A DNA stretch of 63,671 nucleotides, the filler included. It is 3 parts of 3 records of this genome, joined end to end, with 100 filler letters (N's around TTAATTAATTAA, not from the genome) between each part and the next. Parts side by side here need not be neighbours in the genome. Positions count along the whole stretch, not along the records: positions 25,454 to 43,043 come from SRR31156797_4142; 2 more parts are not named here. One strand, written 5' to 3'. Position numbers and translations under genes: made by a program. Positions 19,658 through 43,143 of the stretch are shown piece by piece. Every line of letters starts with the position of its first letter. Position 1 is the stretch's first letter. A model generated the notes under the pieces. It had not been told where the DNA came from and ran no database searches. It saw only the letters and a program-made list of their open reading frames with translations.

Positions 19658-21097
19658 ATGCGCAGAACTAAAATCGCCGCAATTCTTAAAGATCCGGAAT
19701 TCGGCAAAGAAGTAAATGTAAAGGGATGGGTAAGAACTCGAAGAGGTAATAAATTCGTTAATTTCATCGCTCTTAACGATGGTTCATCTATTCATAATTT
19801 GCAAATAGTTGCAGATGTTCCAAAGTTTGATGAAGAATTAATTAAAAGAATTACAACAGGATCAGCGATTTCTGTAGTAGGTAAAATGACAGAATCAAGC
19901 GGTAGTGGTCAAAAAGTTGAAATTCAGGCAGAATCAATAGAAGTAATCGGTGATTGTAATGCAGATGAATATCCATTACAACCGAAAAAACACTCCTTGG
20001 AATTTTTAAGAGAAATAGCGCATTTGCGTTTTAGAACCAATACTTTTGGTGCTATTACACGTGTGCGTCATGCCATGATTTTTGCAGTGCACAAGTTTTT
20101 CTCGGAAAAAGGTTTTTACAATATTCACACACCTATTATTACAGCATCTGATGCTGAAGGTGCCGGTGAAATGTTCAGAGTTACCACATTAGACGTTAAT
20201 AATATCCCGAAAACGGAAGAAGGAGAAGTTGATTTTGATAAAGACTTCTTTGGAAAATCAACCAACCTGACTGTTTCAGGTCAGTTAGAAGGAGAATTAG
20301 CTGCTTTAGCCATGTCTGAAATCTACACATTCGGACCTACTTTTAGAGCTGAAAACTCCAATACAACTCGTCACCTGGCTGAGTTTTGGATGATTGAACC
20401 TGAAATGGCTTTTTATGACCTGAACGACAATATGGATTTGGCTGAAGAGTTTACTAAATACCTAATCAGCTATGCATTAGAAAACTGCATGGAAGATTTA
20501 GAATTCTTAAGTAAGCGTTTGCAGGAAGAAGAAAAGAATAAAAAGGCTGATGAAAAATCAATGGAACTGATTGAGAAACTTCGATTTGTTGCAGAGAACG
20601 ATTACGTTCGCCTAACCTATTCTGAAGCCATTGATATTTTAATGAATTCAAAACCGCATAAAAAAGGTAAATTCCAATATCCAATTAATGGTTTTGGAAG
20701 TGATTTACAAGCGGAGCACGAACGCTTTTTGGTTGAAAAGCACTTTAAAAAGCCGGTTATCTTAACAGATTACCCAATGTCGATTAAAGCTTTTTACATG
20801 AAGCAAAGTGAAGATGGAAAAACCGTAAGAGCTATGGATGTGTTGTTCCCGCAAATTGGTGAGATTATTGGTGGATCACAACGTGAGGAAAGCTACGATA
20901 AATTAGTAGAAAGAATGCGTGCTTTAGATTTACCAGAGAAAGAAATGTACTGGTATTTAGATACACGTAGATTTGGATCAGTACCACACAGTGGATTTGG
21001 TTTAGGTTTTGAAAGATTAATGTTGTTTGTAACTGGAATGACCAATATTAGAGACGTAATTCCATTTCCAAGATCACCAAAGAATGCAGAATTTTAA
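19658..21097 (+). CDS. asnS: Asparagine--tRNA ligase (Bacteroidota contig)
   Basis: [44 protein letters not shown]. Confidence 0.98.
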
Positions 21098-21359: not shown

Positions 21360-22808
21360 ATGTTAAAACAAAGCTTACAACAAAAGTTACTTCAAAAATT
21401 ATCACCATTACAAATTCAGGTGATAAAACTGTTGGAAATACCGGCAGCACAGTTGGAGCAGCGCATAAAAAAGGAGATTGAGGAGAATCCTGTTTTAGAA
21501 TTGGACGGAGAAGGTCGAGAGACGGAAAATGGTGAACCTGAAGTAAAAGAACAGGAAGTTGAAAAAGATGAACTCTCCATTGATGACTATATTCAAAACG
21601 AGGATATACCCGCATATAAGCTGCAATCCCGAAATTTCTCAAAAGATGATAAACACGAAGATATCCCTTTTTCGGAAGGAACTACTTTTCATGAGCACCT
21701 TACCGATCAGCTTTCCCTTCGTATTTTAAATGATGATCAAAAGATTGTTGCAGAATATATTGTAGGTAATATTGATGAAGATGGATACCTACGTCGAGAG
21801 ATTGATGAAATTATAGACGATATCGCTTTTAGTCAAAACCTGGAAGTTGATGAACGTGAAGCCCTTGACGTATTAGAAATAGTACAGGATTTTGAACCGG
21901 CTGGTGTAGGCGCACGAGATTTACAAGAATGCCTGCTTCTACAACTCGACAGAAAAGATCGTTCCTTTCCTGCTGTTAATGATGCTTATAACATCATCAA
22001 ACATCATTTTGAAGAATTTACCAAAAAGCATTACGATAAAATAACGAAACGTCTTCATTTAGAAGAGGAAGACGTGAAGGATGCCATGGAGGAAATTCTA
22101 AAATTAAATCCGAAACCAGGCAGCTCATATAGCAATCCAATGCATAGGGCTGTTCAGCATATTATACCAGATTTTATTTTAGAAATTAAAGAAGGTAAAC
22201 CTGAGCTTTCATTAAATACAAGGAACGTTCCTGAACTTAGAATTAGTCAAACTTATTCTAATATGCTGCAGGATTACTCAACTAATAAAAAGAATCGCTC
22301 CAAGGATAAGAAAGAAGCCGTGATGTTTGTAAAGCAAAAGTTGGATTCAGCCAAGTGGTTTATTGATGCCATCAAACAGCGCCAGAACACCTTGATGATG
22401 ACCATGAATGCTATTCTGGAATATCAAAAAGAGTATTTTATCGAAGGTGATGAAACCAAGCTTCGACCAATGATTTTAAAAGATATTGCTGAGGTGACAA
22501 ACCTGGATATATCTACTATTTCAAGGGTTTCGAATAGTAAATACATTCAAACTCACTTTGGAATATTTGCCTTAAAATATTTCTTTTCGGAAGGAATGCA
22601 AACAGAATCGGGAGAAGAAGTATCTACCAGAGAAATTAAGAAAATCCTGCAAGAATGTATTGAAAGTGAGGATAAGAGAAAGCCATTAACTGACGATAAA
22701 CTTTCTCAGATCTTAAAGGAAAAATCATATAACATTGCACGAAGAACAGTTGCTAAATACAGAGAGCAATTAAATATTCCTGTAGCGAGATTAAGAAAAG
22801 AATTGTAA
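21360..22808 (+). CDS. rpoN: RNA polymerase sigma-54 factor
   Basis: Q-rich region I, DISTISRV HTH, RpoN box ARRTVAKYRE. Confidence 0.98.
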   Translation: MLKQSLQQKLLQKLSPLQIQVIKLLEIPAAQLEQRIKKEIEENPVLELDGEGRETENGEPEVKEQEVEKDELSIDDYIQNEDIPAYKLQSRNFSKDDKHEDIPFSEGTTFHEHLTDQLSLRILNDDQKIVAEYIVGNIDEDGYLRREIDEIIDDIAFSQNLEVDEREALDVLEIVQDFEPAGVGARDLQECLLLQLDRKDRSFPAVNDAYNIIKHHFEEFTKKHYDKITKRLHLEEEDVKDAMEEILKLNPKPGSSYSNPMHRAVQHIIPDFILEIKEGKPELSLNTRNVPELRISQTYSNMLQDYSTNKKNRSKDKKEAVMFVKQKLDSAKWFIDAIKQRQNTLMMTMNAILEYQKEYFIEGDETKLRPMILKDIAEVTNLDISTISRVSNSKYIQTHFGIFALKYFFSEGMQTESGEEVSTREIKKILQECIESEDKRKPLTDDKLSQILKEKSYNIARRTVAKYREQLNIPVARLRKEL

Positions 22809-24110: not shown

Positions 24111-25352
24111 TTACGACAAAGTAAATGAAATTTCCGGATGTCCCTCCAAATAATCCACAATCTCATCTGTTAAACTTATTTTTGTTGATCGGGAATAAAA
24201 CTGAGCATGATTCATCTTATCTTCTTTATCGTAAATAGAAAACTTCAAAGAAACATTTCCATCCACTTCGCTAGATAAAGAAGCCAATTCCGTCACTAAA
24301 GCTTCATCTAAAGATTGTAAAGGAATTTGAATATTTATACCGGACACTCTGGATTCCCGAACTCCATCCAGCATTTCAATTTTATTGACCTTTACTTCCA
24401 GCTCTCCATCTTTTGTCCAGGCTTTTTCCTGCACTTTAGCCTTAATCATAATATAATAACCCTCAACCATATACTTGGCAAAATCAGGATAATCCTTGCC
24501 AAAGAAGGCAAATTCGTAAGAACCCGTATAATCATCCACAGTCATAATGCCATATGGATTTCCCTTTTTGGTTGTCCCCGATCGGGAAGCCGTAACCATA
24601 CCTCCTACAGTAACATCCCTGCCTTTCATCTTTTCCAAATCTTCCAGTTCAGAAAATTTAGTAGTACAAAAATGATTAATCTCTAGTTTGTATACATCCA
24701 ATGGATGCGCAGATAAATAAATACCAATTAAATCTTTCTCGCGTGCAAGCTTTTCAAGTATTGAAAATTCCTCGCAAACCGGGATGGTTGGTTTTGTAAT
24801 AGCGGCACTTGCGCCAACAGCACCAAATAATGAGTTAGCAGCAGACACCTTATCTTGCTGATATAAGTTACCATATCTGATCAGGTTCTCTATAAATGAA
24901 AACTCTTCTCCTTGTTGCGAAGCAAACATTTGTGCTCTGTGCACACCTTCAAAGCCATCAAAACCTCCTGCCGCAGCCAAGGCTTCAAGGTTTTTCTTAT
25001 TCACCGTTTGTAAGTTCACACGTTCTACAAAATCGTAGATATCTTTAAATGGCCCGCCTTCTTCTCGTATCCTGATAATTTCTTCTACGGCTCCAGCCCC
25101 AACACCTTTTACACCAGCCATTCCAAAACGAATCGCACCTTCTTTGTTTACCGTAAACTTACGGTAACTTTCATTTACATCAGGCCCCAATACATCCAAT
25201 CCCATCCTTTTACATTCTTCCATAAAAGTGGTGATCTTGGTAATATCACTTAAGTTACGAGAAAGAACCCCCGCCATAAATTCGGCAGGATAATGGGCTT
25301 TTAAGTATCCCGATTGGTAGGCCACATAGGCATAGCAAACCGAGTGCGATTT
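24111..25352 (-). CDS. dnaE: DNA polymerase III alpha subunit, C-terminal part (truncated by contig end)
   Basis: KSHSVCYAYVAYQSGYLKAHYPAEF, PDVNES, IRFG, HhH, YLSAHPL, OB fold. Confidence 0.97.
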   Translation of the reverse strand, partial: KSHSVCYAYVAYQSGYLKAHYPAEFMAGVLSRNLSDITKITTFMEECKRMGLDVLGPDVNESYRKFTVNKEGAIRFGMAGVKGVGAGAVEEIIRIREEGGPFKDIYDFVERVNLQTVNKKNLEALAAAGGFDGFEGVHRAQMFASQQGEEFSFIENLIRYGNLYQQDKVSAANSLFGAVGASAAITKPTIPVCEEFSILEKLAREKDLIGIYLSAHPLDVYKLEINHFCTTKFSELEDLEKMKGRDVTVGGMVTASRSGTTKKGNPYGIMTVDDYTGSYEFAFFGKDYPDFAKYMVEGYYIMIKAKVQEKAWTKDGELEVKVNKIEMLDGVRESRVSGINIQIPLQSLDEALVTELASLSSEVDGNVSLKFSIYDKEDKMNHAQFYSRSTKISLTDEIVDYLEGHPEISFTLS

Positions 25353-25353
25353 A

Positions 25354-25453
25354 NNNNNNNNNNNNNNNNNNNNNNNNNNNNNNNNNNNNNNNNNNNNTTA
25401 ATTAATTAANNNNNNNNNNNNNNNNNNNNNNNNNNNNNNNNNNNNNNNNNNNN
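25354..25453. other. Artificial contig-joining spacer
   Basis: 44 N + TTAATTAATTAA (stops in all six frames) + 44 N; the genes on both sides are truncated and composition changes. Confidence 0.97.
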
Positions 25454-27227
25454 TGTTGTTGATCGTTATGCTGCCGTTGTATTTGGTTATGATCGCATGG
25501 CAAATGGACAGTCCCAGGCCGCTGATCTTATCGACCTGTTTCGTCGAATAAAAGGGAACGAAAAGGTTGCGGTTCTCCTCTATTCCGGTTCCCGTATCCT
25601 TAAAACTTATGCATAGGTTCTTCCTTTTCCCGGCATAGTGAGTGGATGTTTCGATGGTCAGGATGCCGCCGTCGGGCATGGCCTCAAAACTGTTTTTGAA
25701 GAGATTGAGTAAGACCTGCTTCAGTTCGTTCCTATTGATGGTGATATCAAAGTCATCGCCCTTTTCATCAAAGTTGATCTTTACCCGCCCCTTGAAGGCA
25801 TTGTAGTTGATGAGATCAATGACTTCCTTGATTTGACGATTGATGCTGATCTCCTCGACCGTCAGCTTCTCACCGCCGAAATCCTGCAGGTTGCTGACGA
25901 TATGGGTGATGTAATCAAGTTCACTCTGAATCTTTTTTAAGATTTCCTGCAGCTCTTTTGAACCGAACTTAAAGCGCATATTTGTGAGGTAATTATAGAT
26001 AATTTCCAGAGGATTGTTTATTTCATGGGCCACCCCGGCAGCCAGAAGTCCAAGTGATGCCAGCTTCTCGGAAATTATGTCCTTCTTTTGAAGATTGCTA
26101 TACTCCGTGATATCCTCAAATAGAATGATGCAGCCCAGTAGAAAGCCATCGTCTTTAACGGGAAACAGCCTGACATTGAATATCCCTTCAATATCGTTAA
26201 TTGTCAGATTAAAATGGAAAAACTGTTCTTCCTGAAAGTCGTTAATGCTTCTGATGATCGTATCTGTCTGAGTTCCGGGTGTCCCCTTGAACAATTCCAG
26301 GATCTGCTTCCCGAAGTATTCCTCTTGTTGAATATTAAAGTTCTTCATGCAGAATTGATTAACAAGTCGAATGCTTTTCATCGTATCGATGATCAGAAGA
26401 TTTACCGGCAGATTCACCAGAATGGCTTCGTTGTATTTGATCAGTTCATAGAAATCAGAGAAGTGGCTTTCGGATTCGTCGAGTTCTGAAATCTGGGTAT
26501 AGGCCATCTTGATCAGCTGGATCTTGTCTACCTGTCCGATTTCATCTGAATAGAAATTCTGACCGTTCCTTATAATGGTTATTCTGTCTGCCAGATCATA
26601 TATACCGTCTACCTTATGGGTAATGATCAGGATGGTAGAGCCCTGTTCTTTCAAAGTGAAGATAATATCAAGGATTTTTGGCAGGGCGGCAGTGGAAACA
26701 TTCTCAAGGCTTTCATCCAGAATAAGGATATTCGGGTTCTCTTTTATGTTCGCAAGGATTTCCAAGACCGTCCTATCCGATCTGTTCAAGGATCTGGTTT
26801 CCTGTTTCGGATCCAATTTGAAACCGTATTCCTTCAAGAATCTTTCCGCGTTTTCTATCAGAAGGCTTTTGTGTCTCCATGAGAAGAAGGGTATCTTTTT
26901 ATCTGAATAAAATAAATTTTCCGCAACGGTGAAATAAGGATTGAGAGTGGGATTCTGATAGACCATATGAACTTTTTTGCTGCGAGCTTCTTTGAGACTG
27001 AATGCTTCATAATAGCTGTCCAGGATATTGATATACCCTGACTGGGGAGACACATATCCGGTGATCAGTTTCGCCAGGCTGGACTTTCCGGCGCCATGTT
27101 CTCCCAGCACAGCATGAATTTCCCCTGCGTTCAGTTTCAGGTTCAGGTTATTAAGGACCTGAAGTGAACCGTATGAAAGATTTATATTATGAAGGGAAAC
27201 GGTAGGAGTCAAAAAGTGGCCCTTCAT
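25454..27227 (-). CDS. Soluble hybrid sensor kinase: CUT2/MglA-type ABC ATPase domain + PAS + HisKA/HATPase_c (extreme C-terminus cut by contig end)
   Basis: Walker A GEHGAGKSS, Q-loop MVYQ, Walker B ILILDES, H-loop IITHK; PAS-like NEAILVNLPVNLLIID...VNQ; H-box AAGVAHEINNPL, N-box QVLLNLFKNS, DTGTGI, FVPFYSTK, GLGLSIC; no hydrophobic TM stretch. Confidence 0.9.
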
Positions 27228-28558
27228 TATGCTATCCCGTATTTTTTCATTTTCTGGTACAGGGTGTTACGGCTCATATTCAGGATTCTGGCAGATTCGG
27301 ATTTGTTGCTGCCCGTTAACGAAAGGGTTTTCTTGATGAGTTCCATTTCCTGATTTTCCCTCAGACTGAAAGCATTCTCCTCGGCACTGTCCGATTCGTA
27401 AAATCTGATGGAGGGGGGCAAATCGATAAGCCCGATTAAATTGGATGAACAGATTGTCGCTGCGTAATTGAGAACGTTTTTCAACTCACGGATGTTGCCT
27501 GGCCATTTATACTGTTTGAACAGGGAGTCCACTTCCGGAGACAGGGTTTTGAGATCCTGATTGTTCTTTCTGGAAAAATCAGTAAGAAAGTAATTCGTAA
27601 GAGCGGGCAAGTCCATCAGCCTTTCCCGGAGCGGTGGGATCCTGAGTATGGCCGTGTTCAGTCGGTAGTACAGATCCTCCCTAAAATCACCCTTGGAAAT
27701 CATCTTTTCCAGATTCTTGTTGGTGGCCCCGATAAAACGGACATTGATCTTCGTCGTCGCATCTCCGCCAATACGGCGAACCTCCTGGTTCTGGAGAACC
27801 CGGAGGATTTTGACCTGAATGGTCTCGGGCATGTCTCCGATTTCATCTAGAAAAAGTGTTCCATTATCCGACTGTTCGAAAATACCTTTAAAGCTGGAGG
27901 ACGCGCCGGTATAGGCTCCCTTTTCATGTCCGAAAAGCTCATTGTCCAGCAGCGACTCGGTGAAGGCGGCGCAGTTTATCTTATTCAGTTTCTCAGCCAC
28001 TCTGTTGGAATGGCGGTAGATATAATCGACAAGGAGCTCCTTGCCCGTTCCGTTCTCTCCTTGAATGAGGAGGGGGAAATCTGTTGAGGCCAGCTTTCTG
28101 GCCCTGCTGATCGTCTCAGAAAAATGGGGGTTTAATGAGGACAGGGGCGGAAGGTCTTCGATCATCCTCTCCTTCAGAGCTTTGTTCTCTTTTTTGATCC
28201 TGGATGTGTCATATGCCTTTTCTGTCAGCTGGCTCAAACGTTCAAATTTCAGAGGCTTCTTCAGATAATCAAAGGCTCCGAGTTTCATGGTCAGCACAGC
28301 GGTTTCTACGGTGGCGTATCCCGTGATCATTATAACAGGAAGATCGGGGAGCCTTTTTTTGATGAGCTTCAGAGTCTCAACCCCGTTATCCTGTCCCAGC
28401 ATGATATCCAGCAGAACGACGTCTATCTTCTGGGAATTGAGCGTCTTCAAGCATTCATTTTGAGAAGCTGAATAAAGCAGGGTATGTCCGGTGAACTCAA
28501 AGTTCTCTCTCATCACAGAGTAAATACCCTCTTTATCATCAACGAGCAGAATATTCAT
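27227..28558 (-). CDS. Sigma54-dependent response regulator (REC-AAA+-Fis HTH, NtrC family)
   Basis: LLVDD/LLDIML receiver, GENGTGKE, ELFGHEKGAYTGA, LFLDEIG, WPGNIREL, HTH SESARILNMSRNTLY; its stop overlaps the kinase start (TAATG). Confidence 0.96.
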   Translation of the reverse strand: MNILLVDDKEGIYSVMRENFEFTGHTLLYSASQNECLKTLNSQKIDVVLLDIMLGQDNGVETLKLIKKRLPDLPVIMITGYATVETAVLTMKLGAFDYLKKPLKFERLSQLTEKAYDTSRIKKENKALKERMIEDLPPLSSLNPHFSETISRARKLASTDFPLLIQGENGTGKELLVDYIYRHSNRVAEKLNKINCAAFTESLLDNELFGHEKGAYTGASSSFKGIFEQSDNGTLFLDEIGDMPETIQVKILRVLQNQEVRRIGGDATTKINVRFIGATNKNLEKMISKGDFREDLYYRLNTAILRIPPLRERLMDLPALTNYFLTDFSRKNNQDLKTLSPEVDSLFKQYKWPGNIRELKNVLNYAATICSSNLIGLIDLPPSIRFYESDSAEENAFSLRENQEMELIKKTLSLTGSNKSESARILNMSRNTLYQKMKKYGIA

Positions 28559-28586: not shown

Positions 28587-28633
28587 TGTCCTGAATCAGG
28601 ACAATCGGATGACAGCTGTCCTGTTTTAGGACA
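28587..28633. promoter_or_regulatory. Tandem palindromic upstream activator sequences for the NtrC-type regulator
   Basis: TGTCCTGAATCAGGACA (28587-28603) and TGTCCTGTTTTAGGACA (28617-28633), both TGT-N11-ACA, 30 bp apart. Confidence 0.8.
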
Positions 28634-28755
28634 GTTATTATCATACCATGGTTCTGTAAATCGAAAAGAAAAAAATAGTTAAATCAAATTTTGAGATTGA
28701 TAAACTGTTTTCAAGTAAGGAAATAAATCTGTGTGAGATTTTACATCCTGAGTTT

Positions 28756-28771
28756 TGGCATCAAATTTGCA
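28756..28771 (+). promoter_or_regulatory. Sigma54 (-24/-12) promoter of the ABC/catabolic operon
   Basis: TGGCATCAAATTTGCA = TGGCA-N6-TTGCA with exact GG-N10-GC spacing, 27 nt before the ATG at 28799. Confidence 0.88.
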
Positions 28772-28798
28772 ATAATTAATATGAAAAAAGGAATGTGT

Positions 28799-30286
28799 AT
28801 GAGTTTATTGTTGGAAGCCAAAGATATATGTAAATCCTTTCCCGGCGTCAAAGCCTTGAAGGACGTTTCTTTTCAGCTGGAGCCGGGGACCGTGCATGCC
28901 TTAATGGGCGAAAACGGCGCCGGTAAATCAACTCTGGTGAAATGCTTTATGGGAATCAATCTCCATGATAAGGGCGTGCTGACGGTTCTCGGAAAGGAGC
29001 ATAGGTTCCTTCATCCCAGACAAGCCATTGATGCCGGAATCGCGATGATCGAACAGGAGCTGACACCGGTGGATGAGATGACTGTCGCGGAGAATATCTA
29101 TCTGGGAAGGGAGAGCACGAAGAACGGTTTTTTTCTGGATTACGATGCTATGAATCTGAATGCCGAAGAGATGATGAAAGAGCTTGACCTGAACATCGAT
29201 GTTACCAGAAAGATGAGGGAACTGAGCCTGGCGGAAGTCCAGATGGTTGAGATCGCAAAAGCGTTTTCCTATGACTCTCAGATCATCATTATGGATGAGC
29301 CCACAAGTGCGATAGGCGAAAAGGAAGTTGAGAATCTGTTCAGGATTATCAGAATTCTGAAACAGCAGGGTAAGGGAATCATCTATGTTTCTCATAGGAT
29401 GGAAGAGATATTCGCGATTACAGATAAAATTACAATACTGAGAGATGGCGAGTATATCGACACAGTCGTCACGGCGGACACGGACAGATCGGAAGTCATT
29501 GAAAAGATGGTCGGACGCCGGGTGGATGAGGAGTATCAATCATCTAATGAACCTGAGGATGAGCTTATCCTGCAGGCAGTCGGATTTTCTCAAGCGAATG
29601 TGCTCAAAGACATATCCCTCGATCTCTATAAAGGTGAAATCCTGGGGATTTTCGGTCTGATGGGAGCCGGCAGAAGTGAATTTTGCGATCTTCTGTTCGG
29701 CGTAACGAAAAAAGATGAGGGAAAGCTGTTCATCCAAGGGAAAGAAGTGCCTGTAAACACTCCGAAGGATGCTATGAGAAATGGAATAGCCTATGTTACG
29801 GAGGATCGGAAGAACAGCGGATTGTTTCTGAAGGGAAGCGTAAAAGAGAACATCGCTTTGGCCTCTTTGAGAGAACTGAGTCGTTACGGGTTTATTGATG
29901 AGAGATCCGAGAGGGTCCGTGTTCATAAAATGGTTGATTTGTTCAGAGTGAAATCAAGCGGGCTTGATCATCTGGCTGTCAATCTGAGCGGGGGAAACCA
30001 GCAGAAGGTCGTACTGGGAAAATGGGTTTCCCGGGAACCGAAGATATTGATCCTCGATGAACCTACAAGGGGAATCGACGTCGGTGCCAAGCGAGAGATC
30101 TACGAGTTTATGACCCGTTACGCAAACCAGGGAAATTCGATCATCTTAATCTCATCGGAAATCCCTGAAATCCTTAAGATGAGCAATCGGATCATTGTAT
30201 TTAAAGACGGGGAAATTCAAAAAGAGCTCACTAGATCTGAGGCAAATCAGAATAACGTCATGCATTATGCCTCGGTGAGCGTATAA
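28799..30286 (+). CDS. Monosaccharide/polyol ABC transporter ATP-binding protein (RbsA/MglA type, two NBDs)
   Basis: GENGAGKST, IMDEPT, LSGGNQQK, DEPTRGIDVGAK. Start moved to ATG 28799, downstream of the sigma54 promoter. Confidence 0.96.
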   Translation: MSLLLEAKDICKSFPGVKALKDVSFQLEPGTVHALMGENGAGKSTLVKCFMGINLHDKGVLTVLGKEHRFLHPRQAIDAGIAMIEQELTPVDEMTVAENIYLGRESTKNGFFLDYDAMNLNAEEMMKELDLNIDVTRKMRELSLAEVQMVEIAKAFSYDSQIIIMDEPTSAIGEKEVENLFRIIRILKQQGKGIIYVSHRMEEIFAITDKITILRDGEYIDTVVTADTDRSEVIEKMVGRRVDEEYQSSNEPEDELILQAVGFSQANVLKDISLDLYKGEILGIFGLMGAGRSEFCDLLFGVTKKDEGKLFIQGKEVPVNTPKDAMRNGIAYVTEDRKNSGLFLKGSVKENIALASLRELSRYGFIDERSERVRVHKMVDLFRVKSSGLDHLAVNLSGGNQQKVVLGKWVSREPKILILDEPTRGIDVGAKREIYEFMTRYANQGNSIILISSEIPEILKMSNRIIVFKDGEIQKELTRSEANQNNVMHYASVSV

Positions 30287-30300
30287 AAATGGAGGAATAT

Positions 30301-31284
30301 ATGCAAACGGCAGAATTGAAAGGATCGATGAATAGGGAGTTTTTGATAAAAAAGGCAAGCGAGTATGCGATTGTTTTAGTCTTCTTCCTTTTCTGCGTCA
30401 TACTTTCGTTTATCAGTCCCTACTTTCTAACCAAACAGAATATTCTGAATGTTTTCAGACAGATATCCATTAACGGCCTGCTTTCGATCGGAATGACCTT
30501 CGTCATTCTAACGGGGGGGATAGATCTTTCCGTCGGATCGGTTCTGGCTTTCGGCGGCGTCGTGGCCGCCAGTCTGGCAAGTCCCGCATACGGAGGAGTC
30601 GTCGCTCCGACTGCGGTAAGCTACGGCGTGGCCGTTCTGGCGGGCGTCGTCCTCGGCGCCGTTACAGGCGGAATCATTGCCAAGTGGAACGTCGCGCCCT
30701 TTGTCGTCACCCTCGGGATGATGAGCATCGCCAGAGGTTTTACCTTCATTTACACCAACGGAATGCCTGTCCCTCAGATCGACAAGGGCTTCCTTTTCAT
30801 CGGAAAAGGATCCTTCCTGGGTCTGCCCATGCCCGTCGTCGTCTTCGCCTTGATCTTTGTCCTCGCCTGGATCGCTCTGTATAAGACGAGGTTCGGCCGC
30901 TATGTATACGCCGTCGGCGGTAGCGAAAAGAGTGCGAAAATTTCTGGAATCAACACAAGGTTCATCATCTTTATGGTCTATGTCATTTGCGGCTTCCTGT
31001 CCTCTCTGGCCGGTGTCATTCTGACGGCCCGGACGACGGCCGGATTGCCCCAGGCCGGCACGTCTTATGAGCTCGACGCCATCGCCGCCGTCGTTATCGG
31101 AGGCACGAGTCTGTCCGGTGGCCAGGGGAGGCTGGTGGGAACCATTTTCGGAGTCCTGATCATCGGTGTTATCAGTAACGGTCTGGATATTCTGGGCGTG
31201 TCATCCTATTACCAGCAGGTCGCCAAGGGCATGATCATCGTGGCGGCTGTCCTGCTGGATTCATTTCGGAAGGTGAAGAGCTGA
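30301..31284 (+). CDS. Sugar ABC transporter permease (RbsC family)
   Basis: GGIDLSVG, TRFGRYVYAVG, YELDAIAAVVIGG; GGAGG RBS before ATG 30301. Confidence 0.96.
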   Translation: MQTAELKGSMNREFLIKKASEYAIVLVFFLFCVILSFISPYFLTKQNILNVFRQISINGLLSIGMTFVILTGGIDLSVGSVLAFGGVVAASLASPAYGGVVAPTAVSYGVAVLAGVVLGAVTGGIIAKWNVAPFVVTLGMMSIARGFTFIYTNGMPVPQIDKGFLFIGKGSFLGLPMPVVVFALIFVLAWIALYKTRFGRYVYAVGGSEKSAKISGINTRFIIFMVYVICGFLSSLAGVILTARTTAGLPQAGTSYELDAIAAVVIGGTSLSGGQGRLVGTIFGVLIIGVISNGLDILGVSSYYQQVAKGMIIVAAVLLDSFRKVKS

Positions 31285-31329: not shown

Positions 31330-32355
31330 ATGAAAACTTTGAAGAAGGCTGTCGTATCGGCACTGCTTATCGCCGGGCTTTGCAGCATGGCATTTGCCAA
31401 CGGTCAACAGGATGCGGACGGCCCTCAGAAGTACAGAGTCGGTGCTGCGGTTTACGGTCTCAAAGGAGAGTATATGAGACTATGGGCTACGGCGCTCGAA
31501 CGCCATCCCGCTGTCACAAGCGGTCTCGTGGACGTAACCGTATATGACGGCCAGTATGACGCCGGTGTTCAGCAGTCCCAGTTTGAGACTATGGCTTCTC
31601 AGCAGTTTGATGCCATCCTTTTCGTTCCCATCGATATCGAGGCCGGAGCTGCTGCTGTAGAGGTCGCTGCGGAGGCTGGTATTCCCGTAATCGGTTCCAA
31701 TACCAGAGTCAACAGCGACAAGCTGACCTCTTATATCGGATCCAATGACGTAAAGTCCGGATACATGGAAGCGAAAGCCGTTATCGAAGCCATGGGCGGT
31801 TCCGGCAATGTCGTTATCATCGAAGGCCCCATCGGTCAGTCTGCCCAGATTGAAAGAAGAAAGGGCAATATGAAAGCTATCGAGGAGTACTCGGGCGTCA
31901 ATGTCATCGAAATGAAAACCGCCAACTGGTCCAGAGCCGAGGCCATGAGCCTTATGGAAAACTGGCTGAGCGCCCATCCCGGGGAGATCGACGGAATCAT
32001 CGGACAGAATGACGAAATGGCCCTTGGCGCCATCCAGGCTGTGAAAGACGCCGGACTGGATATTTCTGACTTCCCGACCGCCGGTATAGACGGTGTAACC
32101 GATGCTATGCTGGCTGTTAAGAATAATGAGATGGTCAGTATTCTTCAGAATGCAGTAGGACAGGCACAGGGCGCCCTCGACCTCGCTCTGAGAGCTGTTA
32201 TCGGAGAATCTTATACCCCTGAAGCCGCGTGCTGGGAAAGCATGGAATGGGGAAGCACTATGCAGGACGTCTATAACGTGCCCTGGGTTCCCATTACCCT
32301 GGATAACGTAGACGGACTTCTTCAGGAAAGAGAAGCTCTGACAACCAGAAATTAA
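31330..32355 (+). CDS. Sugar/polyol ABC substrate-binding protein (periplasmic binding protein type 1; threitol/xylitol-binder-like)
   Basis: Spirochaete-style signal ...AFANGQQD; ANWSRAEA, QNDEMALGA, GIDG. The ligand is an inference from neighbouring genes. Confidence 0.9.
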   Translation: MKTLKKAVVSALLIAGLCSMAFANGQQDADGPQKYRVGAAVYGLKGEYMRLWATALERHPAVTSGLVDVTVYDGQYDAGVQQSQFETMASQQFDAILFVPIDIEAGAAAVEVAAEAGIPVIGSNTRVNSDKLTSYIGSNDVKSGYMEAKAVIEAMGGSGNVVIIEGPIGQSAQIERRKGNMKAIEEYSGVNVIEMKTANWSRAEAMSLMENWLSAHPGEIDGIIGQNDEMALGAIQAVKDAGLDISDFPTAGIDGVTDAMLAVKNNEMVSILQNAVGQAQGALDLALRAVIGESYTPEAACWESMEWGSTMQDVYNVPWVPITLDNVDGLLQEREALTTRN

Positions 32356-32413: not shown

Positions 32414-33190
32414 ATGATTCAATATAAAGACTTTGATAAAAATTTCAACCTGAATGGAAAAAACGCCGTGATTACCGGCGGCGCGAAGGGCATTGGCAAG
32501 GCCATCGCGACAATGTATGCGGAAAAAGGCGCAGACCTTTGCCTATTCGATATCTCTGATTCCGGAATGGACACGGCCTGGGAGCTTGAAGAAAAATATA
32601 ATATAAAATGCTTCTTTGCTAAAACAGATATTACCGACATGGAAAATCTGAAAAACTCTGCGGACTACGCTGAAGAGAAGCTTGGTTCAATAGATATATT
32701 GGTGAATAACGCCGGCGTCGTTTTTCTGGATAATGCTGAAAAACTGAGTGAAGAGGAATGGGACAAAACCATCGCCGTTAATCAGAAATCCGTGTTTTTA
32801 GCGTCCCAGGTTATCGGAAACAGAATGATCGCCAGAGGCGGCGGAAAGATCGTCAATATGGCCTCTCAGGCGGGGGTCATCGCTCTTGATAAACACATCG
32901 CCTACTGCGCGACCAAGGCTGCCGTTATTTCCATGACGAAAGTGCTTGCCTTCGAATGGGCAAAATACGGTATCAACGTCAATGCTATTTCTCCCACCGT
33001 TGTGCTTACGGAGCTGGGCAAGAAGGCCTGGGCCGGTGAGGTCGGCGAGGAAATGAAGAAGCTCATACCCAATGGCAGATTCGCCTATCCTGATGAGATC
33101 GCGGGAGTCGCCCTGTTCCTGGCAAGCGATGCGGCCGCGATGATCAATGGCGAGAACATTATGATCGATGGCGGCTATTCAATCAAGTAG
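32414..33190 (+). CDS. SDR dehydrogenase, GolD/DthD (D-threitol dehydrogenase-like) family
   Basis: TGGAKGIG, NNAG, YCATK, and the family-typical ASQAGVIAL..H.AY and SPTVVLTELGKKAW.G..GE. Confidence 0.85.
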   Translation: MIQYKDFDKNFNLNGKNAVITGGAKGIGKAIATMYAEKGADLCLFDISDSGMDTAWELEEKYNIKCFFAKTDITDMENLKNSADYAEEKLGSIDILVNNAGVVFLDNAEKLSEEEWDKTIAVNQKSVFLASQVIGNRMIARGGGKIVNMASQAGVIALDKHIAYCATKAAVISMTKVLAFEWAKYGINVNAISPTVVLTELGKKAWAGEVGEEMKKLIPNGRFAYPDEIAGVALFLASDAAAMINGENIMIDGGYSIK

Positions 33191-33210: not shown

Positions 33211-33666
33211 ATGAATATCGCAATCGGATGTGATGAAGCCGGGTTTGAATTGAAAGAAGTCATCCTGAACTATTTGAACGATGCCGGTTTTGAAGTCGAA
33301 GACTATGGCGTATACGATGTCAATCCTGTCTTGTATCCCGACATAGCTCTGAAGGTAGCCGAGGCAGTTGCTGAAGGAAAACAGGAAAGAGGAATTCTAA
33401 TCTGCGGTACGGGTATCGGCATGGCGATTACGGCGAACAAAGTGCCGGGAATCCGGGCTGCCCAGTGTCATGATACTTTTTCCGCCGAAAGGGCGCAGCT
33501 GAGCAACAATGCCCAGATCATAACCTTTGGAGCCCGGGTGATCGGTCCTGAACTGGCCAAGAAGATCGTCAATACATGGGTGAACCTTAGCTATAAAGAC
33601 GGCAGATCCACGCCAAAAATCCAAAGGATCACGGATATCGATCAGAAATATCATGGTTTCGGTTAA
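33211..33666 (+). CDS. RpiB/LacAB-family sugar-phosphate isomerase (DerI-like, erythrulose-4-P isomerase candidate)
   Basis: CGTGIGMAITANKVPGIRAA, HDTFSAERA, GARVIG. Confidence 0.9.
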   Translation: MNIAIGCDEAGFELKEVILNYLNDAGFEVEDYGVYDVNPVLYPDIALKVAEAVAEGKQERGILICGTGIGMAITANKVPGIRAAQCHDTFSAERAQLSNNAQIITFGARVIGPELAKKIVNTWVNLSYKDGRSTPKIQRITDIDQKYHGFG

Positions 33667-33684: not shown

Positions 33685-34689
33685 ATGCAGAGAATTATAA
33701 ATGATCCCAATCTTGTCGTAGAAGATATGCTGAAAGGCTTTCTCAAGACCCACAAAGACATTGTTTCCCCCACGGAGCATGAACGGGTTGTTAAATATAG
33801 AGAGGCCCCCGTAGACGGAAAAGTCGGTGTTATTACCGGGGGAGGATCAGGGCACAAGCCTGCCTTTGTCGGGTATGTGGGAAAGAACATGGTTGATGCA
33901 GTTGCAGTGGGAGAGGTGTTCGCCTCTCCCACTGCGAAAGCCTTCTTCCAGGCCATGAAAGAGGCGGACTCAGGAGAGGGCGTCGCCTGTCTGTATGGAA
34001 ATTATGCCGGCGACAACATGAATGTCAAAATGGCCGTCCGTATGGCTGAAAAGGCCGGCATAACCGTCAGGACTGTAGTGGCCAACGACGATGCCGCCTC
34101 CGCTCCCAAGGCTGAGATGGAAAAAAGACGCGGCGTCGCCGGTGAGATCCTGATGTGGAAGGCCGGAGGGGCCAAAGCCGCTCTGGGCGGCTCCCTGGAC
34201 GAGGTTATCGCTGCAGCCCAGAAGGCTATCGATAATACAAGAAGCGTGGGAATAGGCCTCAGCTCCTGTACCATTCCCGCGGTGGGGCACCCCAACTTCT
34301 CCATTGAAGAAGGGAAGATGGAGGTCGGCATCGGGCACCATGGAGAGCCCGGTATCAAGGTCGAGGAGCTGACGTCAGCCGATGAGATGGCGGCATCCAT
34401 GCTGGATGTGATCCTTCCCGATCTTCCCTTCGAGAAGGGGGACGACGTTGTTGTGCTCTTATCAGGACTCGGCGCGACGCCTGTGATGGAACAGTATATC
34501 CTGTTCAACAAAGTGGAAGAGCTCCTTAGTGAAAAAGGTATATCCATCCACAGGTCCTATGTGGGAAACTACTTCACTTCTCTTGAGATGATGGGAGCGA
34601 CCCTTACCGTTATGAAACTGGATAATGAGCTGAAAACCCTCGTGGATATGGAAGTGGATACCATGGGTCTGAAGCAGTTCGGAGTATAA
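33685..34689 (+). CDS. DhaK-family kinase substrate-binding subunit (erythrulose/dihydroxyacetone kinase)
   Basis: GGGSGHKPAF.GYVG, NYAGD.MN, RRGVAG, GIGHHGEPG, TSLEM. Confidence 0.93.
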   Translation: MQRIINDPNLVVEDMLKGFLKTHKDIVSPTEHERVVKYREAPVDGKVGVITGGGSGHKPAFVGYVGKNMVDAVAVGEVFASPTAKAFFQAMKEADSGEGVACLYGNYAGDNMNVKMAVRMAEKAGITVRTVVANDDAASAPKAEMEKRRGVAGEILMWKAGGAKAALGGSLDEVIAAAQKAIDNTRSVGIGLSSCTIPAVGHPNFSIEEGKMEVGIGHHGEPGIKVEELTSADEMAASMLDVILPDLPFEKGDDVVVLLSGLGATPVMEQYILFNKVEELLSEKGISIHRSYVGNYFTSLEMMGATLTVMKLDNELKTLVDMEVDTMGLKQFGV

Positions 34690-34699
34690 GGATTAAGCT

Positions 34700-35344
34700 A
34701 TGGCGGATACGTTTAATAACAGTGGGGCTCAGGTCGTCGTTGAGGATCTGGTGGAATGTATAAAGAACAATGTCGACTACCTGAGCGAAGTGGACGGTAA
34801 GATAGCCGACGGAGATCACGGAATCAATATGCAGAAGGGGTTTGCCATCACGGGGAGGCGAATCGAGGGCAAGTCTCTGAGCTTTACAGACGCGATGAAT
34901 GTCCTGTCCGATGTGCTTCTGACAGAAATCGGAGGCTCTATGGGACCGATTTACGGAAGCTGCTTCCTGGAGCTCGGCGATGGCTGCGCCGGTATTGAGA
35001 GCGTGGATAAACAGACTTATCTCAAATCCTTCGAATCGGCGCTGGACGCTGTCGTATCCCTCGGAGGCGCAAAGCTGGGTGACAAAACCATGCTGGACGC
35101 CATGATCCCCGGAGTGGAGGCTCTGAGGGCCGCCGTCGAGGCCGATAAGCCTTTTGCGGTTTGCCTTGATGAGATGTCTGCTGCGGCAAAGGCGGGGATG
35201 GAATCAACAGAGGATATGATCGCGAAGATCGGTAGATCGGCCCGGTTGGGGGAGCGGTCCAGAGGTGTTCTGGATGCGGGGGCCCTATCCTGTTCTCTTA
35301 TCATCGAGAGCATGGGTAATACCATTAAAGGATTGATAGATTAG
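34700..35344 (+). CDS. DhaL-family kinase nucleotide-binding subunit
   Basis: DGDHGINM.KGF, GGSMGPIYG, GDKTMLDA, A.IGRSARLGERS.G.LDAG. Confidence 0.93.
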   Translation: MADTFNNSGAQVVVEDLVECIKNNVDYLSEVDGKIADGDHGINMQKGFAITGRRIEGKSLSFTDAMNVLSDVLLTEIGGSMGPIYGSCFLELGDGCAGIESVDKQTYLKSFESALDAVVSLGGAKLGDKTMLDAMIPGVEALRAAVEADKPFAVCLDEMSAAAKAGMESTEDMIAKIGRSARLGERSRGVLDAGALSCSLIIESMGNTIKGLID

Positions 35345-35574: not shown

Positions 35575-36357
35575 ATGAGTGAATACAGAGAGTTTCTTAA
35601 TAAGACCATATTGAAAGCCGGCTCCATTGCCATGGACTACCGGAGAGACCTGAAAAAAATAAGGGTGGAAAGCAAAAACACCAGCAAGGATATCGTCACC
35701 GAGGCGGATAAAGCGGTAGAGCGCTTTATCCGGGAGGAGCTTGCCAGGGAGTATCCCGAGCATGCGATAACGGGTGAGGAAGAGGGCGCGTCCGGGGATC
35801 ATGAGTACCGCTGGATCATCGATCCCATCGACGGTACGGTCTCCTATCTTCATGAACAGCCCTTTTTCGCCGTGTCCATCGCCTTGAGCCGGAAAGACGA
35901 GGTCGTGCTGGGAGCGGTCTACGCTCCCGTTCTGGGCGAACTGTTCTTCGCTGAGAAGGGCAGGGGAGCCACCCTGAATGGTGAACCCATCCGTGTCAGC
36001 GGGGAGGCTCAACTGGACCAGTCTGTGGTCGCCACAGGCTTCATCTGCCTGCGGGACAATCATGAGAAAAACAATCTTCCGGCCTTCAATGCGGTGGCTC
36101 CCAGAGTACGGGGGGTAAGGCGTTTCGGCGCGGCTTCTCTCGACCTCTGCTATGTGGCGGCCGGCCGGCTCGAGGCCTACTGGGAAGGCAATCTGAATCT
36201 CTACGACATCGCTGCCGGGGCCCTGATCGTGAAGGAAGCCGGGGGGGCGGTGACGAACTACGACGGCTGTCAGGCCGGGGTTCCGCAGGAGATGATCGCC
36301 AGCAACGGCTCGGTTCATGAAAGCCTGTGCGATCTGATCCGGCCCTGCTGGAGATAG
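35575..36357 (+). CDS. Inositol monophosphatase family protein (SuhB-like)
   Basis: [34 protein letters not shown]. Confidence 0.93.
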
Positions 36358-36410
36358 GATCTGATTATCGCCGGCAATCTAACGTAGCTCCCATTTCCAA
36401 TAATATCCTA

Positions 36411-36440
36411 TTGCCAGTTGGCGGGCGTGGGGATTATACT
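36411..36440 (+). promoter_or_regulatory. Sigma70 promoter of asnS (probably leaderless transcript)
   Basis: TTGCCA-N18-TATACT, then 6 nt to the ATG, with no Shine-Dalgarno. Confidence 0.7.
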
Positions 36441-36446
36441 GCCGCT

Positions 36447-37829
<1,383 letters not shown>

Positions 37830-43043: not shown

Positions 43044-43143
43044 NNNNNNNNNNNNNNNNNNNNNNNNNNNNNNNNNNNNNNNNNNNNTTAATTAATTAAN
43101 NNNNNNNNNNNNNNNNNNNNNNNNNNNNNNNNNNNNNNNNNNN
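43044..43143. other. Artificial contig-joining spacer
   Basis: Same 44 N + TTAATTAATTAA + 44 N layout as 25354-25453. Confidence 0.97.

Follow-up and report, generated by a model that had tools for sequence, protein, structure and literature searches.

Histidine kinases with a CUT2-type ABC ATPase domain as candidate transporter-coupled sensors

Introduction

To our knowledge, transporter-based sensing has been described only for systems whose components are separate proteins, as in Bce, Pst-PhoU-PhoR and MalK-MalT, and the route by which the state of the transporter reaches the kinase is still debated in each of them. Here we describe a gene from a 63,671-nucleotide stretch of DNA (the window) that encodes a soluble histidine kinase whose N-terminal domain is an ATP-binding cassette (ABC) nucleotide-binding domain (NBD) of the type found in CUT2 sugar importers. 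New in this kinase is the covalent wiring of a transporter-type ATP-binding domain to a PAS domain and a kinase core, a variant of transporter-coupled two-component sensing.

The kinase BceS is membrane-embedded with two transmembrane helices and contacts the permease BceB through the membrane; the Bce permease is of the FtsX type and the Bce regulator of the OmpR type. In the available excerpts of two papers, the kinase of Bce-type systems (BceRS-BceAB, Firmicutes) lacks a dedicated sensor domain and has been proposed to monitor the state of the cognate ABC transporter (PMC4513084, PMC10314905). The window system would be alike in that a sensor-less kinase reads an ABC transporter and controls that transporter's own operon. 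It differs in that the kinase has no membrane helix and carries its own NBD, that the transporter is not a resistance transporter but a CUT2 importer that depends on a binding protein and has a permease of the BPD_transp_2 family (PF02653), and that the regulator is NtrC-type (REC, Sigma54_activat and HTH_8 domains) and acts via sigma-54. For lack of a membrane helix, and by its permease and regulator, the kinase is not a Bce-type module.

In the Pst system, the NBD (PstB), the adaptor (PhoU) and a membrane-anchored kinase (PhoR) are separate polypeptides. PhoU bridges the Pst transporter and the PAS domain of PhoR, according to excerpts of two papers (PMC13577022, PMC5775613). The window system resembles this arrangement in that the state of an importer would be passed at the cytoplasmic face to the PAS domain of a kinase, in the order NBD, PAS, and then the dimerization and histidine phosphotransfer (DHp) helices and the catalytic (CA) domain; unlike in the Pst system, the NBD and PAS domain form one polypeptide and the kinase is soluble. 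No PhoU was found among the 10 locus proteins scanned against Pfam.

A periplasmic binding protein is the primary receptor in LuxP-LuxQ, TorT-TorS and ChvE-VirA, where the kinase spans the membrane and meets the binding protein directly. A binding protein of the same fold class would recognize the ligand in the window system; the transmembrane transducer, by contrast, would be the ABC permease. AtoS and ZraS carry membrane or periplasmic input modules. The window kinase shares with AtoS, NtrB and ZraS the PAS-HisKA-HATPase_c core with an HEINNPL H-box, a REC-AAA+-HTH_8 partner and a -24/-12 target promoter, and differs from them in its N-terminal NBD and the lack of a membrane helix. It falls short of the NCBIfam AtoS cutoff (NF008468; 182.6 bits vs 646), with a match confined to residues 259-592. 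By its regulator domains, -24/-12 promoter and rpoN gene, the system is a sigma-54-dependent, NtrBC-like two-component system.

The nearest kin of the kinase NBD is the first of the two NBDs (N1) of the CUT2 (TC 3.A.1.2) ATPases RbsA, AraG, MglA, XylG and YtfR. The kinase shares with N1 the canonical Walker A, Q-loop, Walker B and H-switch together with a non-canonical signature; it differs from these ATPases in having one NBD and not two, with PAS-HisKA-HATPase_c in place of the second (N2). It does not reach the NCBIfam cutoffs for these ATPases (YtfR, 144.3 vs 850 bits; AraG, 136.5 vs 689; RbsA, 107.2 vs 745).

Results

An ABC domain, a PAS domain and a kinase core in one reading frame

ORF calling and translation place the kinase in a 609-residue open reading frame (ORF) on the minus strand, running from 27227 down to 25398 (Table 1). 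Pfam assigns ABC_tran to residues 25-173 (E = 1.3e-22), the sole ABC_tran stretch of the protein, PAS_4 to residues 272-375 (30 bits; cutoff 23.1), HisKA (PF00512) to residues 392-450 (39 bits; cutoff 26.9) and HATPase_c (PF02518) to residues 499-591 (54.4 bits; cutoff 26.4). In an alignment of 41 family sequences the kinase boxes are invariant, comprising H401, N508/N512, D544-G546-G548, F556/F559 and G570-G572; the H-box reads HEINNPL. The sequence classifies the protein as a class I (HisKA) histidine kinase, presumably dimeric, for which autophosphorylation and phosphotransfer are predicted. The linker that joins the two halves begins at the position at which the second NBD starts in CUT2 ATPases, after a conserved LIKMAYTQ helix, and contains a YNEA motif that is invariant in the family alignment.

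No membrane helix was detected in the kinase, with a maximum 19-residue hydropathy of 1.46 and none in a structural model built with AlphaFold2 (AF2) from 41 family members. Both the single-ORF architecture and the lack of a transmembrane segment, as read from the DNA in the initial annotation, are thereby borne out. The AF2 model has a mean predicted local distance difference test score (pLDDT) of 75 and resolves the NBD at residues 8-243 (pLDDT 80-91), a low-confidence linker at 245-256, a PAS fold at 267-372, DHp helices at 374-448, modeled as two long helices, and the catalytic domain. Among PDB entries the top sequence match is 3a0r and the top fold match is 4gcz, a PAS-kinase. No PDB chain spans both halves of the kinase (Foldseek TMq at most 0.37; top matches 4gcz and LptB-type NBDs).

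Position 25454, taken at first for the boundary of the gene, is instead the end of a contig, adjoined by an artificial spacer at 25354-25453. The kinase sequence therefore lacks its last ~15-20 residues and its stop codon. Because the ORF runs past the contig end, the 'LIN*' with which it closes is derived from the spacer.

The fusion defines a conserved family

The fusion is a real, conserved family. A 2027-nt contig from a sequencing run that is possibly the source of the window DNA (X1) spans 25454-27480 with 0 differences, and an 848-nt contig from a run of another study (X2) spans 25945-26792 with 3 differences and bridges the NBD-PAS joint. PF00005 and PF02518 occur together in 120 of the 120 best homologs from a collection of 5.8 billion proteins, at 40-76% identity and 595-634 aa. 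When the linker and PAS segment alone was searched against 1.84 billion representatives, 87 representatives of 50%-identity clusters matched at E ≤ 1e-10; as counted from the list of matches, 60 of these are 585-646 aa long with the match at the same position, and most of the other 27 are fragments. The architecture is thus neither a singleton nor an artefact, two of the outcomes that the initial annotation had named as fatal to its proposal. The 8 matches among proteins of 1067-3045 aa are all generic ABC fusions, none with a kinase domain, which is weak evidence for the absence of longer fused forms.

The names of the sources of these relatives include Spirochaetia, Sphaerochaetaceae, candidate division KSB3/Vecturithrix, Desulfomarina and Spartobacteria. 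Within the phylum of one sampled locus (L004), at least 13 of 301 sampled genomes matched at E ≤ 1e-80, a lower bound as four candidates were scored per genome, and each of five genomes that hold sampled loci carries 1-3 full-length paralogs. Members are widely distributed among anaerobes, including Spirochaetota and candidate division KSB3. No description of an ABC NBD-histidine kinase fusion was found in full-text literature searches or by term look-up in a 2005 census of signal transduction (PMC1183210), a scope that leaves aside subscription journals and supplements; as far as this literature extends, the family appears unstudied.

The kinase NBD derives from the first NBD of a CUT2 ATPase

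The window NBD matches the N-terminal half of the neighboring ATPase at 27% identity (E = 2e-31) and the C-terminal half at 22% (E = 8e-13), in agreement with the homology to the N-terminal half that had been noticed by eye. The match runs to the LIKMAYTQ helix, which aligns with the helix that links N1 and N2, so the PAS domain starts exactly at the place of N2. In a tree of 30 kinase NBDs, 24 N1, 24 N2 and 9 single-NBD outgroup domains (IQ-TREE, quick; subsampled from 63, 48, 48 and 11 sequences, respectively), all 30 kinase NBDs fall in one clade (SH-aLRT 98). This clade groups together with N1 (support 85), and the N2 domains make up a clade of their own (98); the kinase NBDs are placed either within N1 or as its sister. 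Descent of the kinase NBD from the N1 domain of a CUT2 sugar-importer ATPase, and replacement of N2 in position by PAS-DHp-CA, are well supported by these sequence comparisons.

Among 63 kinase NBDs, the Walker A Lys, the Q-loop Gln and the Walker B Asp and Glu are each present in 98%, the H-switch His in 95% and the A-loop Tyr/Phe in 98%; the catalytic motifs that had been recognized in the window copy are thus kept throughout the family, at 95-98%. The signature follows the pattern L-(N/T)-x-(S/A)-(D/E)-(R/Q), and the D-loop Asp is found in none of the 63. The 48 N1 domains combine canonical catalytic motifs with a non-canonical signature, LS(V/I)(A/G)(Q/E)QQ. In the 48 N2 domains, the Walker A Lys is replaced by Arg in 77%, the Q-loop Gln by Glu in 77% and the H-switch His by Ser in 89%, and the LSGGNQQK signature and the D-loop Asp are each present in 100%. 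With the catalytic half in N1 and the signature motifs in N2, the CUT2 ATPase has one consensus ATP site. The kinase took over just the catalytic half of this site, and neither site of a kinase NBD homodimer would carry a canonical signature. The window signature (LNRSDR) and D-loop are indeed non-canonical, as first described, but their degeneracy is not decay specific to the kinase: as the N1 signature is non-canonical too, this state is ancestral to N1.

Median pairwise identity is 40% for the kinase NBD, 42% for N1 and 41% for N2; by this measure the kinase NBD evolves about as slowly as the NBDs of working transporters. Between domains of the kinase the medians are 32% for PAS, 40% for the NBD and 53% for DHp. 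The idea that a conserved PAS domain argues for a mere transmitter was dropped, PAS being the most variable domain.

Relatives stand beside CUT2 importers and NtrC-type regulators

The genomic context of the family was sampled in 85 loci, 6 from genome contigs and 79 from metagenome contigs, in which ORFs were labelled by BLASTP against the window proteins. The genome-contig scan had returned 80 loci, 74 of which were dropped as generic kinases matched via VAHEINNP (L001-L005 and L017 were kept). Clustering at 95% identity reduced the 88 kinase genes with an NBD to 71 clusters. Of these, 62 have at least 1400 nt of upstream sequence, and in all 62 the gene immediately upstream, on the same strand, encodes an NtrC-type regulator; Pfam confirmed REC and Sigma54_activat in 10 of 10 sampled neighboring regulators. 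Where at least 6 kb is available upstream (37 clusters), a BPD_transp_2 permease is present in all 37 loci, 36 have a complete CUT2 ATPase with tandem NBDs no more than 5 kb away, and 29 share the divergent arrangement of the window. In the locus without the ATPase (L153), a permease gene lies immediately next to the kinase, and the contig stops 2 kb beyond. The expected linkage to CUT2 transporters and NtrC-type regulators is therefore found across the family. Since every assessable locus but one keeps a complete ATPase, the kinase NBD is dispensable for transport.

The relatives' binding proteins vary widely (35-493 bits against the window binding protein). Two kinase-regulator modules each occur in three loci (L017, L092, L099); in L017 they stand back to back, each with its own binding protein, ATPase and permease, which suggests one module per transporter.

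In the divergent intergenic regions of up to 800 nt, a -24/-12 element with at most two mismatches was found on the transporter strand in 25 of 31, compared with 0 of 31 on the opposite strand and ~1% of shuffles. The promoter placed at 28756 in the window by the initial annotation is such a sigma-54 element, with equivalents in these 25 related regions. In the window, the stop codon of the regulator and the start of the kinase share 1 nt, and co-transcription of the two genes is well supported. The TGTCCT-N5-AGGACA palindrome between the divergent genes occurs at 2 sites in the whole window, with 0.14 expected by chance; its sequence is not shared between related loci. The intergenic layout fits a sigma-54 promoter that is activated from sites further upstream. 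The two palindromes are the likely activator sites of the regulator, which most likely binds both and activates the promoter at 28756. The rpoN gene in the record indicates that the organism has the sigma factor needed by this regulator and promoter. Very probably, then, kinase and regulator together govern the neighboring operon for CUT2 uptake and catabolism via the sigma-54 promoter.

Predicted docking of the kinase NBD on the permease

In ABC transporters, NBDs are coupled to the membrane domains through the Q-loop Gln and the residues that follow it. One complex prediction was made, pairing the permease (22-row alignment) with kinase residues 1-250 (41-row alignment). It scored 0.65, against 0.00 for the best of 3 controls; 58 of 80 solved complexes attain this mark, as do 2 of 110 mismatched pairs, a calibration that is rough here, as the alignments were our own. 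Between the three runs at least 94% of contacts coincide, and the partner pLDDT is at least 80. On the permease side the predicted interface comprises residues 195-221 and 278-279, a conserved coupling loop (T200, R204, Y207, A208, G211, N212, A215, S219 and G220), and on the NBD side residues 88, 94-99, 103-104 and 107-119, the groove after the Q-loop. The modeled interface is thus canonical, a Q-loop groove set against a coupling loop; the model supports binding and is no demonstration of it. No solved structure related in sequence to the permease was found in the PDB.

Interface residues showed no signal of cognate-specific convergence with N1 or N2 (p = 0.55, 0.90, 0.97 and 0.13); the test has no power in either direction, as the positive control, N1 against N2, was also null (p = 0.21 and 0.61). 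Covariation at the level of subfamilies is visible by eye between kinase residues 88, 96 and 99 and permease residues 204, 207, 208 and 211. It was not counted as evidence because the pattern follows the subfamily clades.

A model for transporter-coupled signaling and its alternatives

We tentatively propose, at not quite an even chance, that the NBDs of the kinase dimer sit on the permease coupling loops, read the state of the transporter and relay it to the kinase core. The two NBDs would dock on the coupling loops of a permease homodimer, replacing the transport ATPase there. Engagement of the permease by the sugar-loaded binding protein would move the coupling loops, and an ATP-dependent closing of both kinase NBDs would be passed through the conserved linker and the PAS domain to the DHp helices, where the relay would switch autophosphorylation; the receptor would be the binding protein and permease together. 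As the family always stands beside a CUT2 importer, the kinase may well read the transporter itself. Because an N1-type homodimer has no canonical LSGGQ at either site, the ATP site of the NBD would act as a conformational switch and not as a motor.

Several points weigh against this docking model. The variability of the PAS domain (median identity 32%) is what a cytoplasmic sensor of specific ligands would show. As 36 of 37 loci retain a complete ATPase, the kinase would have to share the permease or compete for it. An ATP sandwich may form poorly, because an N1-type homodimer lacks both the canonical signature and the D-loop Asp, and a pure switch would hardly need the conserved catalytic Glu and His. 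The docking itself is no more than a prediction, and its score may arise from a resemblance that any NBD bears to solved complexes of ABC importers. In the kinase NBD, the 22 columns of the predicted interface are no more conserved than the other non-motif columns (entropy 2.56 vs 2.11), and they show relatively less constraint than their counterparts in N1 (2.06 vs 1.94) and N2 (2.02 vs 2.02). Of the docking put forward in the initial annotation, the controlled prediction (0.65 vs 0.00) and its canonical interface speak in favor; the interface without extra conservation, and the restriction to a model, do not.

The PAS domain could instead sense the imported sugar or its first metabolite in the cytoplasm, with the NBD as an ATP-dependent dimerization or energy-charge gate that makes no contact with the transporter; the NBD would adjoin CUT2 operons merely because these are the regulon of the system. 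We regard this as less likely than the docking model. The variability of PAS fits the differing ligands of transporters with such diverse binding proteins, the predicted permease-facing surface of the NBD has no extra conservation, and the kinase core is AtoS-like over residues 259-592. A cytoplasmic PAS sensor leaves unexplained why the input domain is a single clade of CUT2 N1 type and why no other transporter type stands beside the kinase in the 37 assessable loci; the retention of the Q-loop Gln and the segment after it, and a complex model that passes its controls, also argue against it.

Pairing of the kinase NBD with the transport ATPase is improbable. In such a pair N2, for example, would complete the ATP site of the kinase NBD with its LSGGNQQK and D-loop, and the kinase would sense or throttle the ATPase cycle. 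The kinase NBD does have a catalytic half-site (Walker A, Q-loop, Walker B and H-switch) with no canonical signature, N2 is the only domain in the same loci that offers a canonical signature and a D-loop Asp, and the complete ATPase is there in nearly every locus. N2 is, however, covalently tethered to its own N1, which fills that site, and the ORFs labelled by BLAST in the loci include no free N2-like gene. If the fusion were an artefact of assembly or a frameshift, or the gene a functionless pseudogene in decay, this would fit the incomplete 3' end of the gene and the concatenated contigs of the window. In practice this reading is refuted: the truncation falls at the end of a contig, away from the domain joint, that joint is spanned by contigs from two runs of different studies, the architecture recurs in all 120 homologs and the catalytic motifs of both halves are 95-100% conserved.

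The docking model can be extended to one in which the ABC importer scaffold is itself a transmembrane receptor: with the kinase dimer in the position of the ATPase, binding protein, permease dimer and kinase dimer would make up a second complex, dedicated to sensing. Ligand-triggered, ATP-dependent closing of two N1-type NBDs would lead directly to His autophosphorylation, and the kinase might also be a weak starter motor before the ATPase is induced; we consider this possible, with somewhat less than an even chance. If the docking is true, a soluble kinase gains access to extracellular ligands without a membrane segment of its own, along a signaling path that the polypeptide itself defines and that is open to dissection by point mutations in well-understood ABC motifs. 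The specificity of the system could then be altered through exchange of the binding protein, an advantage for biosensor design. If the receptor-scaffold reading is true, the kinase NBD represents a new class of sensor input module, and the family offers a natural, genetically simple system for studies of signaling from ABC membrane domains to NBDs.

The adjacent operon and variant loci

The genes from the ATPase to Dak2 form a tightly spaced operon, divergent from the kinase-regulator pair. The same dehydrogenase, isomerase and Dak set adjoins relatives of the kinase in at least seven sampled loci (L002, L090, L109, L114, L122, L146 and L148). Erythrulose kinases are Dak-type enzymes. A tetritol route, as given in an excerpt of a paper that cites Huang et al. 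2015, runs through a dehydrogenase, an erythrulose kinase and an RpiB-like isomerase to erythrose-4-phosphate (PMC10733421). The enzyme set of the window operon resembles tetritol routes, and by this analogy the substrate may be a tetritol such as D-threitol. Contigs from a microbial mat metatranscriptome (X5) match 27945-28406, part of the regulator, and 28646-28830, the promoter and 5' region, at 95-99+% identity; they are no evidence of transcription, and their organism may be a relative.

In one subfamily an additional BPD_transp_2 permease gene stands alone, tail-to-tail with the kinase gene (L133, 8405-9397, minus strand; likewise L124 and L126/L128/L130). It lies apart from the upstream operon of ATPase, permease and binding protein, and is followed by unrelated genes (DUF1349 and MFS). 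Such a kinase-adjacent permease paralog without an ATPase of its own could be a dedicated sensory permease; the loci that have it are interrelated and may represent a single event. In four other loci (L149-L152) the CUT2 ATPase ORFs are 728-837 aa long, ~300 aa over the usual length, which may reflect an extended start call or a fusion.

Features of the window

Table 1. Coordinates, strand and supporting evidence of the features described in the window.
Feature	Position	Strand	Basis or remarks
rpoN (Sigma54_AID + CBD + DBD)	21360-22808	+	On the first contig, not on that of the kinase
Artificial contig-joining spacer, 44 N + TTAATTAATTAA + 44 N	25354..25453	.	Non-biological
Soluble NBD-PAS-HisKA-HATPase_c histidine kinase gene	25454..27227	-	3' end cut by contig end; ORF, Pfam, spacer
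DHp/HisKA, residues 376-450 (H401), and HATPase_c, residues 451-591 and beyond	25454..26102	-	End missing; Pfam, invariant boxes
PAS domain, residues 267-375	26103..26429	-	PF08448, 30 bits; most variable domain of the family
Linker, residues 244-266	26430..26498	-	Alignments; low pLDDT at 245-256
ABC NBD, CUT2 N1 type, residues 8-243	26499..27206	-	Pfam, NCBIfam, motif table, AF2, tree
NBD key residues: Walker A GEHGAGKSS (K48), Q91, signature LNRSDR (147-152), Walker B D171-E172, H204			
NtrC-type response regulator, REC + Sigma54_activat + AAA_lid + HTH_8	27227..28558	-	Pfam, ORF coordinates
Two 17-bp palindromes TGTCCT-N5-AGGACA	28587-28603, 28617-28633	.	30 bp apart
Sigma-54 -24/-12 element TGGCATCAAATTTGCA (TGGCAT-N5-TTGCA)	28756..28771	+	Ends 28 nt before the ATPase ATG
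CUT2 (RbsA/AraG-like) ABC ATPase, two NBDs	28799..30286	+	N1 catalytic, N2 with canonical signature; Pfam, NCBIfam, motifs
BPD_transp_2 (PF02653, RbsC-like) permease	30289..31284	+	Pfam; coupling loop at residues 195-221, predicted docking site of the kinase NBD
Periplasmic sugar-binding protein (Peripla_BP_4)	31330..32355	+	Pfam
SDR dehydrogenase	32414-33190	+	Pfam
RpiB/LacAB-type isomerase	33211-33666	+	Pfam
DhaK-like Dak1	33685-34689	+	Pfam
DhaL-like Dak2	34700-35344	+	Pfam

A spacer identical to that beside the kinase lies at 43044-43143, and the window consists of three contigs joined in this way. Genes that flank the spacers, such as the kinase with its missing 3' end and a DnaE fragment, are cut by contig ends and need not be neighbors in the genome. 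The DnaE C-terminal fragment (24111-25325) is a separate gene cut by a contig end; it starts mid-protein, with what we take to be a conserved DnaE-like motif. No Rfam match was found in the window. Two genes for class II aminoacyl-tRNA synthetases of the Asp/Asn/Lys type (tRNA-synt_2 and OB fold) are present on different contigs, at 19658-21097 and 36327-37829, both on the plus strand.

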